Made by a program: the position numbers and the translations under genes. A stretch of 64,000 nucleotides of DNA, from the IMG/VR virus record IMGVR_UViG_3300027754_000048; one strand, 5' to 3'. Shown one piece after another: positions 3,463 through 61,323 of this stretch (its first letter is position 1; each line of letters opens with the position of its first letter). The DNA is from a virus. The notes below the pieces were generated by a model that did not search any database, was not told the origin of the DNA, and was given only the letters and a program-made list of their open reading frames with translations.

Positions 3463-3545
3463 TATAAAGTTTTTATTTCTTGTACTGCTTGATACAAGAT
3501 TAGTTTTCTTGAATATAATACTATATTTCTGGACCCTATAAAAGC

Positions 3546-3571
3546 AAAAAAGGAGCAAAATGCTCCTTTTT
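3546..3571. terminator. Rho-independent (bidirectional) terminator
   Basis: AAAAAGGAGCA-AAA-TGCTCCTTTTT perfect hairpin with A/T tracts on both sides. Confidence 0.8.
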
Positions 3572-3572
3572 A

Positions 3573-3836
3573 TTAAAGTGATGATTTCTTTTCCTTTGGT
3601 AGTGCTTTTCGTTGAACGTCTTTTTTCTTTGGCTTTCTGGATTTTATTTCTACTGGAGAAAGTTGAGATTCTTTACATCTTTCGTTTTTTGAATCTAACA
3701 TTACTAGATAATCTCCGGTTGCTCCATTGATTGCTGTAACTTTTCCTATTTTACCTTTTAGTGTGACAGATTGTCCTATTCGATATTTATGAGACTTTAT
3801 TCTAACGTCCAGCGATTCGTTTACGCTAGCTCCTTT
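3573..3836 (-). CDS. -1 frame extension of the 3821..5419 ORF (SH3/KOW-like domain + basic tail)
   Basis: Open frame 3869->3573 has no ATG/GTG/TTG before the domain: KGASVNESLDVRIKSHKYRIGQSVTLKGKIGKVTAINGATGDYLVMLDSKNERCKESQLSPVEIKSRKPKKKDVQRKALPKEKKSSL*. Reached via A AAA AAG at 3839-3833. Confidence 0.65.
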   Translation of the reverse strand, partial: KGASVNESLDVRIKSHKYRIGQSVTLKGKIGKVTAINGATGDYLVMLDSKNERCKESQLSPVEIKSRKPKKKDVQRKALPKEKKSSL

Positions 3837-5419
3837 TTTTTTAAAAGATCGATTCGAATATATGTTTCTTTAAGTTCCTTAATCGTAGATTCAATAGATT
3901 CTTTGATTGAGCTAAGTCTTCCGCTTTCAGCATCCGTTAAGTTTGGATTTTCAATTGCAGTATCAAGCTTTTGAATAGATTCTTCTAATTTTTGAATATC
4001 ACTGTTAATCTTAGATTTTGCAGCTTCTGCTTTATTTAAAGCATCGACTGATTCTTCGATTTTAGTTTTAAAAATTGGACTAATGTCATAATCGAATTTT
4101 GATTTGAAGAATTCATATAATTCAAATTCGTCAACTTTAGTCCATACACGATCTGCAGAATTTACTTTTTCGCAGATATAAAAATCTTTATTTAGATTTA
4201 AGATTGATGCTTCAGCAATACGACGATCATTTGAAACTTCTTTAATAAACTCAAAGTTATAAATAGTTTCAATGTTTTCAAGAATAGTAGTAAGTCTTGT
4301 TTTATTTAAGTTGCTATCAAGAGCTAATGCTTCAGAAACGTTAATACTCTTAGGCTCGCCAATCTTTTCACCATTAATAAAGACATCAAGACTTTTGTTT
4401 TCATTCATTCTTAAACCTACTCTAAGATTTTTGATGTTATGTGTTTCAACACCTAGACCGTCTTGAGTTTTTGAAAAACCTAGACTATGATACGCTTCAC
4501 ATAAATTATAAAAATCAGAATGATTTTCACTAACGTATTCTGGAGACAAATCAGAGATCTTAAAGTTTCCATCATAGTGCACTTTAACTTCTGTTCCAAT
4601 TAATCCTTTTGCTTCACGAATAGAAAGGAAACGATTATCTGTGTAAATAATCATTCCGTCCGCTGTTCTAGTTGAAGGAGCAATTAGGTTATTAATTACA
4701 GTATCGCTATTTCCTTCACCTACTGTGAAACTTCCGTTCTTTTGAGATTCAAAAATTCTAAGGTCGTTGATCAAATGCGTGATAGGAGCAACAGTATTGT
4801 TATATTTGATCTTTAGGATATCTGCAGTATATGTTTCTTTTACTAACATATTTTTTAGATCTGAAACTACACCAGCATAAGAAGGAACTCTCATATTATC
4901 AATCTGATAGATTGTACGTAGCATTAAAAGTTTGTCCCAATTCTCAGTGATATATTTCTTCACATTATCCACTGCAGTTTTTGCAGTAACATCATATGAA
5001 TATTGTTCAAAAACATCCACAAATTTTCCACAAAGTGCAGCAGCAATGATTCCGCTATTTAATTCACTTTCAAAAAGATCGATTGCTGCTTGTGCAACCG
5101 GTTCAGAATAAAGTTGAGATTCTTTAAGTAAGCTGATCTTATCAAGAAGGTTTGATTCTTTTGCAATCTTTAAAAGTCTAGAATCTACAGTATCTTCATT
5201 TTTTGAAAACTGCTTCAATATTACTTTAATCGTAGGATTATTAAGATTCTCATTGATCGAAGTAAGACTGTTTTTAAGATCTGTATAAATAGCTTCGGTA
5301 CTTTCTCCCAAAGCAATCGATTTATTGGCTGACCCAACGAGCATTTTTACCAAGGGCTCAGAGTTAATAGAAGGATTACTATTTAGCTCTGTTAATATTC
5401 TTTGCAAGAATTGATTCAT
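3821..5419 (-). CDS. Probable head/prohead-core structural protein with C-terminal coiled coil
   Basis: 532 aa. Many I/L-x-E-S motifs (SINE, LKES, LFES, IFES) typical of T4-like protease-processed head proteins; late motif AGATAAATA at 5442-5450. Confidence 0.55.
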   Translation of the reverse strand: MNQFLQRILTELNSNPSINSEPLVKMLVGSANKSIALGESTEAIYTDLKNSLTSINENLNNPTIKVILKQFSKNEDTVDSRLLKIAKESNLLDKISLLKESQLYSEPVAQAAIDLFESELNSGIIAAALCGKFVDVFEQYSYDVTAKTAVDNVKKYITENWDKLLMLRTIYQIDNMRVPSYAGVVSDLKNMLVKETYTADILKIKYNNTVAPITHLINDLRIFESQKNGSFTVGEGNSDTVINNLIAPSTRTADGMIIYTDNRFLSIREAKGLIGTEVKVHYDGNFKISDLSPEYVSENHSDFYNLCEAYHSLGFSKTQDGLGVETHNIKNLRVGLRMNENKSLDVFINGEKIGEPKSINVSEALALDSNLNKTRLTTILENIETIYNFEFIKEVSNDRRIAEASILNLNKDFYICEKVNSADRVWTKVDEFELYEFFKSKFDYDISPIFKTKIEESVDALNKAEAAKSKINSDIQKLEESIQKLDTAIENPNLTDAESGRLSSIKESIESTIKELKETYIRIDLLKKKELA

Positions 5420-5474
5420 TTCGCAACGATTTATTTTATTTTATTTATCTGCATTGGGTGCAAATAATGTCATT

Positions 5475-14633: not shown

Positions 14634-16610
14634 TTAATTTTTAAAAAAACGGTCTCTTAATTTTTTCATTTGTTCACGCGATTCTAAATCAAATACATTA
14701 TTTTTGAGTATAGTATCACCAGTTGACCCATTGACCGGATGATTTAACTCTCGTAATTCGTCAAAATTATACATATTTTTTGTTCCAATTTCTCTATATA
14801 CGTTAAATATTTTTTCCTCAACTTCTTTCCTATATTCAGGTGAAGCATTTTCATAGGTTTCGACACCAATATCCCAAAACTGAGAAGAATCAAAAAATGG
14901 TGCAAGATTAACGCAGGTCATTGCCAGGTCATCATTTCCATTTTGTCCTCGATATATTCCTCCTCTAGATTTACCAAATGACATTAGCTCCATTATTGTA
15001 ACAAAATCATTAGGAATAATCTTATTAATCATAACTAAATATTTGAATCGTTCGCAGTATTTCGTTCGATTAGTTGGCCCTAATCTTAGACCTAGTTTTA
15101 CATTGGTCGCCATTTCAGTATGTTTAGTGTGAACAAATTGTCCTATCCAATAATTTGGATTATCTACAAATCGATTATGTATAATTTCTCCTTTATGGTT
15201 CATTTCAATCACTATCCTTGATTTTTCAGGATTGAATATTCGGTATATGATAAATTCTGAGGCTGCTGCAAATTGAGTAACGTCTAATTCATTTGTCCTA
15301 AACTTACCTATTTGTACTAATGAAATAGTATCTAATTCATTACGAACGGCGTCTTTCTTTTTAAGTAATTCCTTAACCGGCATAGCAACCACCTTGTAAA
15401 TATTAAGAACTGAATAATCTCCACCTACTCCATCTGCAGTATCGATCGTAAATACAAAATTGGACGGATCTGATTTAAAATCGTCTAGTATATATTTTGC
15501 ATATTTTGGGTGAAACGATAGATAATCATTTATGTACATTCTGTCCTCGTCTAATGGAAACTTAGAATTTACATAATCTGCCTTAATATTATACAGCCTC
15601 TTCAAATCTGTTGAATTTAAGAGTAGTTGATCTGATGAGAAAAACTGTAACCCATACTCCTGATTAAAGTCTTCGATCGATCCAATATCCGCGATTGTTT
15701 CCTGTTTCCATTGTTCGTCTCGACCTGGAACCTGCCACCAGTCTACTCTTAATGGAACAAAATTGCTGCGATTTGCAATAGCATCGCTCCAAATATCATA
15801 GAACTTATTTTTTCCATTTGGTGTTGAAGTAATGATGATTTTTGAATTAGGGTCAGCCGAGATAGTTGGAAAAATTGCTCGATAGAATTCATCAAGTTTT
15901 GCCTGATCAATATGTGCAAACTCGTCAATGTACAATAGGTTAACTGTTAAACCTATACCTGATTTCTTGGTGGTAGTTCTACCAACAATACGACTATCGT
16001 TGTCAAACTTAATATTACCTGTGTTAATGTGCTTTATACCTGGCTTCATAAAGAAAGGCAAGTTATCCAAGATAATCCTAAACTTATCTAAGAGTTCTCT
16101 AGTAGTAGTAAAGTTATCCGCAACAATCAGCGCGGTCTTTTCTGCATGGAAAAGCAAGAACCAACAGATAAAAAGAGCAGAAGTAACAGATTTACCAATC
16201 TGTCTACTTGCCATCAAAATATTATACTTGTTTGCCTTTAATGAGTGCAGAATCTCCTCTTGAAAATCTCGAAGACCTTTGGTGTCCTTCAAACACATTA
16301 CTCCATCATTTGTCTGAATAAATCCATAATTACATGCAAAATAGAGAATATCGTCTTTGCATTTTGTAAGTTCGGTCCACTCTTCTGGAGTATATTCAAA
16401 TGGTAAACTTGCACGCTTTAGATTAATGTCATTGTCCTTGAAAGGAGAATTATGTAGACCCTTGATGTCTAATCCATTGTCAATTTGATCAAGGAGAGAA
16501 TTAATTCTTAACGTAGTCCATATGGAGGTATTCGTATCATCATCTGATCCTCCAATAGCTGAAATCTTACGAGACGTGAAAGCGCCCCGATTCGACATAA
16601 CATCTCTCAT
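14634..16610 (-). CDS. gp17: Terminase large subunit (T4 gp17-like)
   Basis: KCKDDILYFA, Walker A ASRQIGKS, Walker B LLYIDEFA, ITSTPNG, nuclease IDTADGVGGDYS and NDDLAM. Confidence 0.95.
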   Translation of the reverse strand: MRDVMSNRGAFTSRKISAIGGSDDDTNTSIWTTLRINSLLDQIDNGLDIKGLHNSPFKDNDINLKRASLPFEYTPEEWTELTKCKDDILYFACNYGFIQTNDGVMCLKDTKGLRDFQEEILHSLKANKYNILMASRQIGKSVTSALFICWFLLFHAEKTALIVADNFTTTRELLDKFRIILDNLPFFMKPGIKHINTGNIKFDNDSRIVGRTTTKKSGIGLTVNLLYIDEFAHIDQAKLDEFYRAIFPTISADPNSKIIITSTPNGKNKFYDIWSDAIANRSNFVPLRVDWWQVPGRDEQWKQETIADIGSIEDFNQEYGLQFFSSDQLLLNSTDLKRLYNIKADYVNSKFPLDEDRMYINDYLSFHPKYAKYILDDFKSDPSNFVFTIDTADGVGGDYSVLNIYKVVAMPVKELLKKKDAVRNELDTISLVQIGKFRTNELDVTQFAAASEFIIYRIFNPEKSRIVIEMNHKGEIIHNRFVDNPNYWIGQFVHTKHTEMATNVKLGLRLGPTNRTKYCERFKYLVMINKIIPNDFVTIMELMSFGKSRGGIYRGQNGNDDLAMTCVNLAPFFDSSQFWDIGVETYENASPEYRKEVEEKIFNVYREIGTKNMYNFDELRELNHPVNGSTGDTILKNNVFDLESREQMKKLRDRFFKN

Positions 16611-56817: not shown

Positions 56818-59800
56818 TTGACATCTGCTCTAGATTTATTAATTAATGAGGTGGCCAATGTATTGGGCATTTCTCCAGACGAAGTTAAAGCAAAGTTTAC
56901 AGAAGATCAATTGAAAGACTTGCTAAACAGCGTTTGGTGTGAGCCAATCGACGAGCTTGGAATCCCAATAGATTCTTTAGAAGCTCCGTGTGAAGATCTT
57001 GCAATTCCAAACCTGTTACCTGCAATCGAATTGGAAGCTGAACTTGAGAATATTCTTACGAAGGCAAAAGCAAAAGAAAAGCAGGATCCAACCAAATGCG
57101 TGCAAAAAATAGATGATGTAAACTCTATTGTTTCTAAACAAATAGACGAATATCAACAGCACAAGAATCTATTAGAAAAACTAATTGAATATCGAGATAA
57201 TTATTCACCAGTGGTTGAATATTTTAAAGAAAGAGCAAACGAAACTGCTAGATTATTAGGTGTTTTTGATCCATTATTAATTGAGGAAAGGCGACTATCT
57301 GCACTGATACCTACACTAAAGGATCAGCGTAAAGCAATCGAAGAATCAGTTACAACAACATATGTTCCTCAAGCTATTTTAGATAGACTTGCACTAATCG
57401 ATTCTCAAATCGATGATGTGCAAAGCAGATTACAAGACACACAAGATGCCCTAAGTACTCTTGAAAAAAATGAATATGGTGTTGGTGCAAATAACTCATC
57501 GTTAATTGGTAATTCTTACTATAATTCAGTTCTTCAATATCAAGAAAACTCAGGAAATTCTTTTGAATTTTATATAAAACAATACTTTAATCAATACATT
57601 AGTTATTCTGAATTGCAAGAATATCAAGATCAGGTAAAAGCATATTCTGAGTGTTTGACTGTATATGATGATGCTCGACCTATTAATAGTATTCAAGACG
57701 TGGTTGAAAATTCATATTTTACGTTTAAGCTTGCGTTTATACAATTGAATGGAATAAAACTACAAAAGGAAGTAGTTGAAAAATCTACAGGCGCACGTAA
57801 GATTGAAAAATATAATTTTCCAATTAAAGGTAACCCAATACTTCAAAAGGACTCTTTTTTTAATTCGTCTAGTATATTTTCTCTTACCGAATTTAATATT
57901 ACTCCTGGACAAACCGTAACTGGCAAGATCTACACACAATACTATAATTTATTTGAAGATCCGGTCAATAATTTCTTTTCTCCATCTGACAGAGGACTTA
58001 CTAGTTCAATCAATTTAGTTGATCCTAAATTAAAAGGAACTGGCGCTGAAATGAAAAGAGAAAAAAATGCTCAATATTATATACAGAATCTTGATTTAAT
58101 GCAGGATTTTTATCAAAATTTTGAAAATTCATTTGAAGTCAAAAAAGCTGAAAAACGAGCACAAGTCATTGACACGGGTCTTGCCGCACTTAAAATTAAT
58201 TTGGGAGTAGTTGCTCGCAAAGAAGCAAAATTATTGCTTGCATTAGGCAAAGTAAATTACTATCTACCTGAAGAAAATCCAAATCTTCAAACCATAGTAG
58301 ATGGATTAACTCAAAAAAATAATCAGTTTTTACAAGCAGCTGCTGAGTTAGATGAAGAAATCGCTAGAATTTCATTAAAGGTTGAAGAACTTAAACCCAG
58401 CGTTGAAAAAACTAAATCATTATTAAAGTCATATAGTCCAGAATGTTTTGATAAGATAGATCAACCTATTACTGGGTGTAATGACGTTAAATCGCAATTA
58501 GGAGTCGATCCATTTTTTACTAAAACTTTAAATGGAATCGATCCAACTCTGCCTACCTCTAATCAAATGTGTTATTGGGTAGAGTTTGCAAAAATGGCAA
58601 CTTTCATTGGACTTCTACCCATGCCAAATGGAGCAAAAGTCGGACAACTTAGGTATTGGCCAGTTGGAATCATAATTCCATATCCAGGCGGGCTCATTAA
58701 GATTCCTTTGCCAATTATGTGGATTCCTTTATTGACTATTTCGACACCGCTGGGAAATATTGTGTTTTTCTTGACAATAAATGGAGTCTTTATTTCTCCA
58801 GTTGTGTTTTTAGTTTCAAATAGCGGTTTCAAACAACATATTATTACGGTTAAAGGTCCTTCTGAAAAATTTGGATATACTGGCGAAGATGAATCGATAA
58901 AACCCGAAATTCATATACCACTATCGATACTTTCAGCTAAAGATAAGGCAACTCGACTTTTAAACGAATCCTCATTAGGTCCTAATTATAATCTTAATGA
59001 TTCTGAGAAACAACAATTGTCCAGACAACAGACTATTTTAAAAGCAAGAGAGGAATCTGCTAATGCTACTGGTAACGAAAACAAAAAATTAAAAACCGCA
59101 AGAGAAAAAAAGAATCTTGAAAACTCCACTAGTAATGTCAAGCGATATGAAAAAATGGAGAAGATTGTAAATAAAGTAGATTCAGCTAAAGATGCAATTG
59201 AAGATGCAAAAAGAGCAATTTTAAATAGATTAGATGATCTTGGAAAACCGTCTCTTAATAACTCAAACAAAACAAAAGAAAAAATAGTTTCACGTAGAGA
59301 AAAACTTCTCTCTCAGTTAAAGGAAGCACTAGTCATTGGTGACGAGCCTCAAATCATAAGCATTAGAAAGCAATTAGAGTCAGATGGAATAGAACTTTCT
59401 GAAAAGATCGATGCCATAAAGTCAGATATGATTACGTATTATGATAGAATCAAGTTTCCAAAAATCGTTATTCCAAAGGATTCATCAACTATTGATCTAA
59501 AGCAAAACGCAATAGCTGAAATAGTCGATAAAATACGAGAATTTGCAAATATTCACAAGACTCAATTTTTCTCAAAGGAGAGCGCAAGAGTAAAAAATAT
59601 TTTTCTAGTACAGTTAGCTAAAAATAAAGAAAAAATAAGAGAAAATAATTCTAATCTTACTGATTCAGATGGTCTGATTGATGTTGATAAGAATCCAGAA
59701 AAAGTAAAAACGTTCCTATTAAAAGCAAATAAAACTATTGTTGATGCTGCAAGCGGCAAGGGTGCCACTGGAAATTCATCTGATAAAAGAAAAAAGATAG

Positions 59801-61323
59801 ATGATTTACAAAAGCAATACGACAAGGAAACAGACAAAGTAAAAAAGGTAAAACTTAAAAAAAAATTAAACAAGGAAAAGGTTTCTTTGTCTGAAATATT
59901 TGAAAATGAAAAAACTAAAACTGCACTTGCCCTAACTCCCGAAGTCATGTCAGCTCTTGCAGCAATTAGCATCGACTTTGATCCTTTTGCTCCGTGTTGT
60001 AAAAAGGAAACTTTTTCTCTTGGTCTTACTGTGAGTCCCGCATTGCCAATATTTTTAGCTGCACGCGCTACACTTGATGCTGCAGTTAATTCACTTAGCG
60101 CGCAAGATCTTAAATCTTTATTTGGAGGTAAAACAAAAGTTTCTACTAGAGAAATTACAACAGCTTATCTTTCCCTAATTAAAAAAAATATTCCCACTAG
60201 TTTAGAGATTCCTCTTCCGGATCTTAATCTACTTTCATTTGCAAAAGCATTTTCGGGTTTACTTATTTCATTATACGAGATAAAAGCACCAAACGCTGCA
60301 GCACAGCCTGCTTTACCAAAAAGTATTACACTTGACTTAAATCTTTTAAAGAAACCTCTTCTAATCCTACTCTTATCTTTTCTTGAAAACTGTTTACCTG
60401 ACCCTACTACTATACCGCCGACTAATATTTCTACAACATCCTCTGCAAGTTCATCAGATACATCCCCTTCTCCAAAGTCTTTAACTAATTTACCTAGTTC
60501 AAATCCAAATACCACAACTCCACTGGATCCTACTATCAATATTGTTACGTGTGATCCTTCTACAACTGAAGATACTATACTTTCAGATGGAACATACAAT
60601 CCAGCCAATCTTCATTCTGGTCGACCTAATTATACTCAGTCTTCTAACTCATCAGCCTATAGTTCAGGTAATGTTATTATAAATTCAAAAAAGGATATTT
60701 TACCTAATTTTCAGACATTAGATTTAGATTTTCTAAGTGTTAATCCTGGTGACCTCTTAGTTATTCTAAAAAACTTTATTGAATTAAAATTCGATGAAGT
60801 AGAAAAACTTTTAGATCCATTTTATAGTTTACTTAATATTGTTAAGGGAGCAAAAGGGGTTAATTTGAATCTACTTGAATTTACTCAGCACAAGATTCCA
60901 CCTACTGGTCCGCCTGCTGAAGCTACCTTTTTTGCCATAACTAAAGCCAAGGCTTTTGCTCCACGTTCTGCTAATTTTAAAATGATAGATGTTGACATCG
61001 TCAAACAAAAAGTTGCTCTACTTGAGCCCGCTTTATCTGCTATTTCTGCAACCGCTCCAATCTTAGCCGCTGCTGCTGGTGCAGCAGATGCAGTTTTGCC
61101 AAACTTAAAATCTCCAAAAATTGATACTACTACCGGAGGATTTAAGACAATTGATAAAAAAGCTGCTACTTTTGCCCTAAGACAAATAAATCCATTATTA
61201 AGTCAAGATGATGTCCCTCCTTGGGAAAGAATGAGCGTTAAAAACGTGCTATTTGTGCTATTTCTAGATGAATTTGTTGCTACCGGAGCAGATCAAGTAG
61301 GATTTTTCAGATCTTACATATAA
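56818..61323 (+). CDS. Giant hypothetical late protein
   Basis: 1501 aa, TTG start, coiled coils, central hydrophobic Pro-rich segment (YWPVGIIIPYPGGLIKIPLPIMWIPL), Lys-rich and S/T/P linkers. Confidence 0.7.
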   Translation: MTSALDLLINEVANVLGISPDEVKAKFTEDQLKDLLNSVWCEPIDELGIPIDSLEAPCEDLAIPNLLPAIELEAELENILTKAKAKEKQDPTKCVQKIDDVNSIVSKQIDEYQQHKNLLEKLIEYRDNYSPVVEYFKERANETARLLGVFDPLLIEERRLSALIPTLKDQRKAIEESVTTTYVPQAILDRLALIDSQIDDVQSRLQDTQDALSTLEKNEYGVGANNSSLIGNSYYNSVLQYQENSGNSFEFYIKQYFNQYISYSELQEYQDQVKAYSECLTVYDDARPINSIQDVVENSYFTFKLAFIQLNGIKLQKEVVEKSTGARKIEKYNFPIKGNPILQKDSFFNSSSIFSLTEFNITPGQTVTGKIYTQYYNLFEDPVNNFFSPSDRGLTSSINLVDPKLKGTGAEMKREKNAQYYIQNLDLMQDFYQNFENSFEVKKAEKRAQVIDTGLAALKINLGVVARKEAKLLLALGKVNYYLPEENPNLQTIVDGLTQKNNQFLQAAAELDEEIARISLKVEELKPSVEKTKSLLKSYSPECFDKIDQPITGCNDVKSQLGVDPFFTKTLNGIDPTLPTSNQMCYWVEFAKMATFIGLLPMPNGAKVGQLRYWPVGIIIPYPGGLIKIPLPIMWIPLLTISTPLGNIVFFLTINGVFISPVVFLVSNSGFKQHIITVKGPSEKFGYTGEDESIKPEIHIPLSILSAKDKATRLLNESSLGPNYNLNDSEKQQLSRQQTILKAREESANATGNENKKLKTAREKKNLENSTSNVKRYEKMEKIVNKVDSAKDAIEDAKRAILNRLDDLGKPSLNNSNKTKEKIVSRREKLLSQLKEALVIGDEPQIISIRKQLESDGIELSEKIDAIKSDMITYYDRIKFPKIVIPKDSSTIDLKQNAIAEIVDKIREFANIHKTQFFSKESARVKNIFLVQLAKNKEKIRENNSNLTDSDGLIDVDKNPEKVKTFLLKANKTIVDAASGKGATGNSSDKRKKIDDLQKQYDKETDKVKKVKLKKKLNKEKVSLSEIFENEKTKTALALTPEVMSALAAISIDFDPFAPCCKKETFSLGLTVSPALPIFLAARATLDAAVNSLSAQDLKSLFGGKTKVSTREITTAYLSLIKKNIPTSLEIPLPDLNLLSFAKAFSGLLISLYEIKAPNAAAQPALPKSITLDLNLLKKPLLILLLSFLENCLPDPTTIPPTNISTTSSASSSDTSPSPKSLTNLPSSNPNTTTPLDPTINIVTCDPSTTEDTILSDGTYNPANLHSGRPNYTQSSNSSAYSSGNVIINSKKDILPNFQTLDLDFLSVNPGDLLVILKNFIELKFDEVEKLLDPFYSLLNIVKGAKGVNLNLLEFTQHKIPPTGPPAEATFFAITKAKAFAPRSANFKMIDVDIVKQKVALLEPALSAISATAPILAAAAGAADAVLPNLKSPKIDTTTGGFKTIDKKAATFALRQINPLLSQDDVPPWERMSVKNVLFVLFLDEFVATGADQVGFFRSYI

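Follow-up and report, generated by a model that had tools for sequence, protein, structure and literature searches.

The 64,000-nt stretch of DNA analysed here (IMG/VR virus record IMGVR_UViG_3300027754_000048, hereafter the window) belongs to a large phage with 34% GC that has not been cultivated. The locus of interest lies on its minus strand and comprises a gene for a 532-amino-acid (aa) protein, P0001, together with a second reading frame, P0002, which overlaps the end of this gene and continues beyond it. The P0001 open reading frame (ORF) ends in CTT TTA AAA AAA AAG GAG CTA GCG TAA and thereby includes a run of nine A residues (A9; Table 1). An earlier, sequence-only reading of this DNA had noted that the -1 frame stays open past the 532-aa ORF, that it lacks a start codon of its own ahead of the domain which it encodes, and that its stop codon lies just before a terminator. 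All three observations were borne out: read from position 3833, the -1 frame comprises 86 sense codons and a TAA, its sole ATG, GTG or TTG codon is Met45 of the extension, which falls inside a predicted barrel domain, and the terminator hairpin begins 1 nt after the stop. A trans-frame product would thus measure 529 + 86 = 615 aa.

The candidate promoter GATAAATA upstream of P0001 matches seven of the eight positions of the T4-type late promoter TATAAATA, while no Shine-Dalgarno (SD) sequence is present ahead of the P0001 start. The position of this element before P0001 and that of the terminator after the -1 stop indicate that both frames share one short transcription unit, and the terminator is placed likewise in five relatives (L001-L003, L097 and L098). 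Just past the terminator, in the window (3480-3545) as well as in these five loci, a TAGTATAGTAT-like motif precedes a methyltransferase gene, and this motif may be a conserved promoter element.

Table 1. Coordinates of the features of the P0001/P0002 locus in the window.
Feature	Position	Strand	Basis or remark
Late-promoter-like GATAAATA	5442..5449	-	about 22 nt upstream of the P0001 ATG; candidate from sequence
Zero-frame ORF, 532 aa (P0001)	3821..5419	-	translated ORF; stop codon 3823-3821
A9 run, putative recoding site	3834..3842	-	starts at codon position 3 (TTA AAA AAA AAG)
Slippery heptamer A_AAA_AAG, in phase	3833..3839	-	sequence
-1 frame extension (P0002), 86 codons + TAA	3573..3833	-	TAA at 3575-3573; homologous in all frameshift-layout loci and in stand-alone genes
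6-bp stem CUAGCG (3829-3824)/CGCUGG (3814-3809)	3809..3829	-	3 nt past the heptamer; in the RNAfold minimum free energy structure
S-V-N-E, extension residues 3-6, candidate prohead-protease cut site after Glu	3816..3827	-	conserved [S]-[LVI]-x-E
SH3-like five-strand beta-barrel (predicted), extension residues 22-60	3654..3770	-	AlphaFold2, Foldseek, VIA
Lys/Arg-rich tail, extension residues 61-86, predicted disordered, isoelectric point 10.5	3576..3653	-	AlphaFold2 low confidence; alignment
Intrinsic terminator hairpin (11 pairs) + T run	3547..3571	-	1 nt past the -1 frame stop; closes the transcription unit

Sixty-two database homologs of P0001 were identified, nearly all of which are 529-534 aa in length, with four longer members whose tails are unrelated, and the junction was read at 90 loci from viral and metagenome collections plus two more (L097 and L098). 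Three layouts were distinguished. The frameshift layout, that of the window, is represented by 18 distinct sequences from independent JGI, ENA and Logan assemblies (16 placed on a phylogenetic tree, i.e. a clade of 15 and the sequence L041, plus L097 and L098), which are 31-57% identical to the window protein. The ORF ends in an A9 run in 17 of these and in an A8 run in one (L010), where C replaces the ninth A (A8C) and the frame offset is unchanged. The extension is in the -1 frame in all 18 cases: past the run the 0 frame shuts at 1-6 codons and the +1 frame at 1-2, while the -1 frame, which encodes a homolog of P0002, runs on for 78-90 codons. Neither ATG, GTG nor TTG occurs between the run and the domain in any of the 13 distinct junctions that were tabulated; L097 and L098 each possess a TTG and an ATG 11-13 codons past the run, beyond a V/L-N-E motif and before the barrel. 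Near-identical copies across samples never differ in run length. On the maximum-likelihood tree 15 of the 16 frameshift-layout sequences placed form a single clade (SH-aLRT 96) whose terminal branches measure 0.3-0.6 substitutions per site, yet L041 (31% identity), which has the same layout, falls far outside it.

The separate layout (13 distinct sequences) has the module encoded by P0002 as a downstream gene with its own start codon, an A-run of six at most and an extra N-terminal leader of 13-17 aa of the type MKNILSYSQY..SLKE. No module was detectable in the remaining layout (28 distinct sequences), where runs do not exceed seven and the Lys codons are a mixture of AAA and AAG; many of these homologs carry long in-frame C-terminal extensions of other kinds. 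Start-less modules and long runs are thus perfectly associated, the A9-type run being found with 18 of 18 start-less loci and with none of 41 homologs of the other layouts. The split, which the sequence-only reading had considered might be either kept or fused in relatives, is kept in 18 distinct homologs, and an in-frame fusion of P0001 and the module was found neither among the 62 homologs nor among the longer module-holding proteins searched, which argues that both isoforms are needed.

Several side observations concern these layouts. In L020, L055 and L081 the module forms the C-terminal domain of a protein of approximately 250 aa, encoded downstream of the P0001 homolog, which carries a leader of the separate type, a further domain and, immediately ahead of the module, a second motif of the SLxE type. 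Within the clade of the separate layout, L004 (4590-4700) and also L017, L018, L046, L062 and L088 have a very short ORF inserted after the 530-aa gene and ahead of the SH3-like one. Its product starts with a signal of the lipoprotein type, MKILVIILVILISCSCAS, and its ATG overlaps the upstream TGA (ATGA). The C-terminus of the P0001 family furthermore appears as a hot spot for unrelated in-frame tails, among them charged Lys/Asp/Glu low-complexity stretches, Cys-rich repeats and D-x-D-G-D-G-D (L012, L020, L031, L034, L038, L040, L074-L078, L082, L085 and L087), and most of these tails come after a [VIL]-[ND]-E located a short way past the conserved core.

Conservation of the run exceeds what coding for lysine would maintain. 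AAA makes up only 62-67% of the Lys codons in these genomes; from these codon shares the survival of an unbroken run by chance, given Lys-Lys-Lys, was estimated at approximately 0.15-0.26 per lineage and, over ten or more deep lineages, at less than about 1e-6. Additionally, the window contains two A/T runs of nine or more, against approximately 13 positions expected under a first-order model. The A9 run is therefore beyond chance, as long A/T runs are depleted in the window and this one is retained in 18 diverged homologs. A second A9 run (59857-59865, plus strand) lies in frame (AAA AAA AAA, i.e. KKK) in the middle of a 1501-aa ORF (56818-61323), where the -1 frame closes at 10 codons and the +1 frame at one, and slippage at this position would yield a truncated product of approximately 1015 aa.

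We consider it very probable that the locus represents programmed -1 recoding at a conserved A9 run, with isoforms of 532 and 615 aa. The earlier proposal of two such isoforms thus receives strong comparative support from the 18 homologs, the exclusive use of the -1 frame and the missing start. Most expression would end three codons past the run and generate the 532-aa protein, while a set fraction would continue in the -1 frame to generate a 615-aa protein with an SH3-like barrel and a basic tail.

The comparative layout also speaks against assembly error, a length-variable mutational hot spot and pseudogene decay. Replication slippage and sequencing errors readily affect A9 runs, and the run might accordingly be a DNA-level hot spot, a contingency locus or a miscalled homopolymer, with a single fused 615-aa ORF carrying ten A residues as the true or ancestral gene. 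This is very unlikely given that 17 of 18 distinct homologs display A9 in independent assemblies, near-identical copies included, that the sole exception is a substitution with the same frame offset, that no fused form was found among the homologs, and that the run shifts phase at constant length, for which an explanation other than selection acting on it is difficult to give. Decay of a once-fused gene, broken by a frameshift and followed by an extension which is no longer expressed, is the default reading of a split ORF and has nothing specific in its favour; its probability is next to negligible, as the extension is under clear purifying selection over the 31-57% range of P0001 identity, contains no stops and conserves its barrel core, its junction motif and its basic C-terminal motif.

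A further alternative is that the module is a separate gene, translated from a non-canonical start (ATT, ATA or CTG) or by termination-reinitiation, with the A-run as incidental Lys coding. Sister phages do make the module as a protein of its own, rare start codons are present in some loci (e.g. ATT in L001), L097 and L098 hold the above canonical TTG and ATG codons, and starts are hard to recognise because the host seems not to use SD sequences. However, the start codons of L097 and L098 fall downstream of the conserved V/L-N-E motif, and canonical starts before the domain are missing from all tabulated junctions. Conservation of S-[LV]-x-E moreover begins in the first codons past the run, upstream of any conceivable rare start, which renders independent initiation unlikely. 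The stand-alone forms, in turn, possess a start codon and a 13-17-aa leader, both of which are missing in the window, and the A9 run is perfectly associated with the start-less layout. Independent initiation is consequently judged most unlikely, and programmed recoding is retained as the explanation of the locus.

Not all local elements around the run are shared by the family. The sequence-only reading had named two overlapping heptamers, of which A_AAA_AAG is in phase and kept, while T_TTA_AAA is in phase in the window but not kept in relatives. It had also noted a 6-bp stem past the heptamer: the stem itself exists, being present in the RNAfold minimum free energy structure, but it is probably not a stimulator, as it is unique to the window among 13 loci, with no conserved downstream structure in its place, and starts only 3 nt after the heptamer. 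The AAGGAG that follows the run was likewise rejected as an SD sequence for a downstream start, since it is missing in L001 and L003 and no start codon follows it, and since the P0001 gene itself starts without an SD sequence.

The shift could take place at either of two levels, and transcriptional slippage had rightly been kept open in the sequence-only reading, as the sequence fits both. In the case of slippage, the polymerase would add one A to the transcript, leading to exactly the -1 frame; in the case of frameshifting, the ribosome would slip by -1 on A_AAA_AAG or A_AAA_AAA. Bacterial RNA polymerase slips efficiently on runs of nine A or T residues, mostly adding bases (PMC5009743; PMC3711429), A-runs of more than seven have been linked to transcriptional realignment (PMC3711429), and transcription of the phage appears to rely on the host polymerase together with a phage-encoded sigma-like factor. 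Ten loci have the run beginning at codon position 3 and five at position 1, with a length of nine in both sets, and the preservation of this length across a change of phase, which needs compensating substitutions at both run ends, points to polymerase slippage. Slippage is also favoured by the fact that nine residues are kept though programmed ribosomal frameshifting needs only six or seven, by the weaker A_AAA_AAA carried by the five position-1 loci, and by two negative results: a shared structure was not found in the 70 nt past the run across 13 loci (RNAfold), nor was a GGAGG- or AGGAG-like element found in the 21 nt before the run in 13 loci. Conversely, an in-phase A_AAA_AAG or A_AAA_AAA is present in 15 of 15 junctions examined, and this, together with the constant -1 direction, points to ribosomal frameshifting, which these two properties fit as well as they fit slippage. 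A_AAA_AAG is the most shift-prone -1 heptamer in Escherichia coli (PMC5009743), and a conserved direction of the shift among orthologs was used by Antonov et al. as a heuristic for programmed ribosomal frameshifting (PMC3711429). On the sequence evidence, polymerase slippage would seem to have a slightly better than even chance of being the mechanism and ribosomal -1 frameshifting a chance slightly below even, and both may contribute.

These two possibilities have known counterparts. Thermus thermophilus dnaX and Shigella spa13/mxiE (PMC5009743) resemble the window locus in that a homopolymer of approximately nine A or T residues lies inside a coding region, where a host-type multisubunit polymerase is expected to add A residues and to give two isoforms in a set ratio, RNA structure not being needed. 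Slipped transcripts of Thermus dnaX give the shorter product, whereas in the window, as in spa13, they would give the longer one. Unlike Thermus dnaX and spa13, the window locus also has an in-phase A_AAA_AAG, so that translation may contribute. E. coli dnaX and the insertion sequence (IS) elements share with the window the same in-phase heptamer near the end of the upstream frame, and a -1 direction that is conserved in all orthologs. However, neither of the stimulators of E. coli dnaX (an upstream SD-like element and a downstream stem-loop) is conserved in the window family, and five relatives have A_AAA_AAA instead of the dnaX/IS heptamer while the run length stays at nine. Recoding of phage structural genes with an added C-terminal domain is found in T7 capsid 10A/10B and lambda G/GT, and Ig-like domains are appended to structural proteins by frameshift. 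The lambda tail chaperone G/GT is treated in PMC5009743. The likeness to these phage cases lies in a stoichiometry that is set by shift efficiency; the differences lie in the protein family, the appended SH3-like basic module, the A9 site and the free-standing occurrence of the module in sister phages.

For the extension, an SH3/KOW-like fold with a Lys-rich tail had been predicted from the sequence, and this prediction proved right at fold level. In an AlphaFold2 model built with a 22-sequence alignment (A2), the block comprising the barrel, residues 22-60, has a predicted local distance difference test score (pLDDT) of 86-90, with predicted strands at residues 22-25, 28-35, 41-46, 49-54 and 58-60. 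Foldseek matched the model to Tudor, PWWP and KOW domains with a probability of 1.00; TM values by target for Tudor domains were 0.7-0.78 at a root-mean-square deviation of 1.1-2.7 Å, the Tudor domain of PHF20 giving 1.1 Å over 51 residues. Similarly, the VIA structure-only search returned Z values of 7.0-7.7 to Tudor, chromo and NusG KOW domains. At the sequence level the module matched no curated family in Pfam, PHROG or NCBIfam, and the sole match of its profile to PDB sequences was ribosomal L24 (E = 0.08). The module is 9 kDa in size, the isoelectric points of all 22 members of the alignment are 9.7-10.2, and the basic tail carries the conserved motif K-D-[LIV]-x-R-K-x-x-P-K-E-K; paralogs elsewhere in the 64-kb window were not found. 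By analogy with small basic SH3-like DNA binders, it is plausible that the module binds nucleic acid. Public gene calls in relatives of the frameshift layout (L095, 11680-11844; L096, 4293-4457) comprise only a 54-aa fragment that begins at the barrel Met, the approximately 80 nt after the 532-aa gene being left uncalled. The recoded product is thus missed by automatic annotation, gene callers leaving the module either uncalled or truncated to this fragment.

P0001 itself was modelled by AlphaFold2 at a pLDDT of 86.8, with a helical N-domain (1-228), a beta-rich middle (240-430) and a C-terminal coiled-coil hairpin (447-531). Comparison with PHROGs, Pfam and NCBIfam returned nothing meaningful, a search of 50,697 phage records (blastn and tblastn) returned no match, and an exact-sequence look-up found no record. 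Structure-based searches were similarly uninformative: Foldseek against the PDB gave nothing below an E of 0.005, the wide VIA search matched only a generic C-terminal helical hairpin (451-532), and structure and feature searches of the ESM Atlas gave no usable match. A P0001 profile matched only coiled coils among PDB sequences, at E > 0.3. In BFVD the viral structural relatives of P0001 are uncharacterised and include remote ones in the Tenacibaculum phages PTm1 and pT24; when the PTm1 genome was searched with a profile, no sequence match came up, and a sequence homolog in cultured phages was not found. The complex prediction for P0001 with the module scored 0.00, gave no verdict and carries no weight either way.

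Elsewhere the window encodes a T4-type large terminase (14634-16610), a sigma-like factor, a baseplate wedge, neck genes and a GroEL-type chaperonin. The nearest terminases are those of huge metagenomic phages, Sphingomonas phage PAU, Flavobacterium phage MaF61 and the Tenacibaculum phages PTm1 and pT24. The gene order terminase ... sigma ... 657-684-aa protein, P0001, methyltransferase is conserved. The 564-aa neighbour has no phage match. Phages of the frameshift clade live in freshwater, probably on Bacteroidota.

The first residues of the extension suggest what the fusion may be for. Ser3 and Glu6 are invariant in alignment A2, while Ser is replaced in L097, and the junction reads S-[LVI]-[NT]-E in the frameshift clade and S-L-K-E after the leader of the stand-alone modules. 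In-frame extended homologs, whose tails are mutually unrelated, have [VIL]-[ND]-E or a similar sequence 6-25 residues past a core of approximately 528 aa. The T4 prohead protease gp21 cuts after L/I-x-E (PMC9026906), and by analogy [LVI]-x-E could be a cut site. PF03420, the gp21 family, was detected above the curated cut-off on two of four relatives' contigs, G002 of the frameshift clade and G003 of the stand-alone clade; the domain (198 profile positions) lies at the N-terminal end of a frame of approximately 653-666 aa in L093 (G002) and L092 (G003), which far exceeds the length of such a domain standing alone.

The leaders of the stand-alone modules follow the pattern MK-x-IL-x-Y-x-x-[FY]..., and by resemblance of pattern only they recall the T4 capsid targeting sequence (CTS); the extension of the window has no such leader. 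The T4 CTS, MKTYQEFIAE, is 10 residues long, with positions 4 and 7 serving for targeting and positions 8 and 10 for processing (PMC9026906; PMC3012670), and the leaders are like it in aromatic residues three apart followed by [LI]-x-E. P0001, for its part, starts with M-x-x-F-[VL]-x-x-[IV]-L-x-E in 36 of 41 homologs. Four unrelated genes of the window, all on the minus strand with starts at 936, 25713, 26546 and 27146, have leaders similar to those of the stand-alone modules, namely MKHILHYSE (936), MSVLKFNQYLILE, MKYLQQYQLFES and METRLKSFTRFIGE, and such leaders may constitute a portable head-targeting family. The T4 internal proteins are small and basic, like the module (PMC9026906; PMC3012670), and Glu-terminated boundary motifs and a gp21-family protease in related genomes are further likenesses to the gp21 system. 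The T4 internal proteins have, however, no sequence homology to the module, and the frameshift clade lacks a leader, in place of which the 530-aa fusion is proposed.

The junction motif, PF03420 in relatives, the CTS-like leaders and the P0001 start together suggest a reading in which P0001 would be a prohead-targeted carrier and the SH3-basic module a cargo that is freed by a protease in the head. The 530-aa carrier would enter the prohead with the module; a gp21-type prohead protease would cut after [LVI]-x-E at the junction and free the basic module, possibly onto packaged DNA. In sister phages the module is encoded by its own gene with a targeting-type leader, while the frameshift clade would have swapped this leader for a slippage-fusion to the carrier. 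Several points weigh against such a role. The motif is short and is read by analogy with T4, and a PF03420 protease gene was not found within the 64-kb window. In the AlphaFold2 model the fold of P0001 includes its N-terminal helix as a packed element, which fits poorly with a cleaved propeptide, although this is a mild objection. Homology to head proteins was not recognisable in either sequence or structure searches, and the upstream 657-aa neighbour resembles ORF102 of MaF61, which is set between baseplate genes. The sequence-only reading had called P0001 a putative head protein whose longer isoform possibly binds nucleic acid inside the head; neither homology nor neighbourhood establishes a head role. 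The carrier-and-cargo reading is therefore offered tentatively, as a possibility with appreciably less than an even chance of being correct. That the number of cargo copies per head would be fixed by how efficiently slippage occurs at the A9 run, with the carrier C-terminus as docking point for exchangeable modules (in-frame or frameshifted), is more doubtful still.

Late phage proteins with a minor isoform that a -1 shift extends at the C-terminus are of a familiar kind; what sets this locus apart is a strict A9 in two codon phases, sister architectures with a separate module, and a protease-type motif at the junction. A comparatively validated recoding site is added in a family that is annotated as 'hypothetical' throughout. 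The family also represents a natural experiment in which three routes deliver one module: a gene of its own with a leader, fusion to a different domain, and an A9 frameshift. With the constant length of nine in two codon phases, the family lends itself to telling slippage of the polymerase from frameshifting by the ribosome. If true, the carrier-and-cargo reading would reveal a way in which giant phages set how many copies of a protein are packaged, and it would point to a portable junction motif by which foreign proteins could be loaded into capsids.

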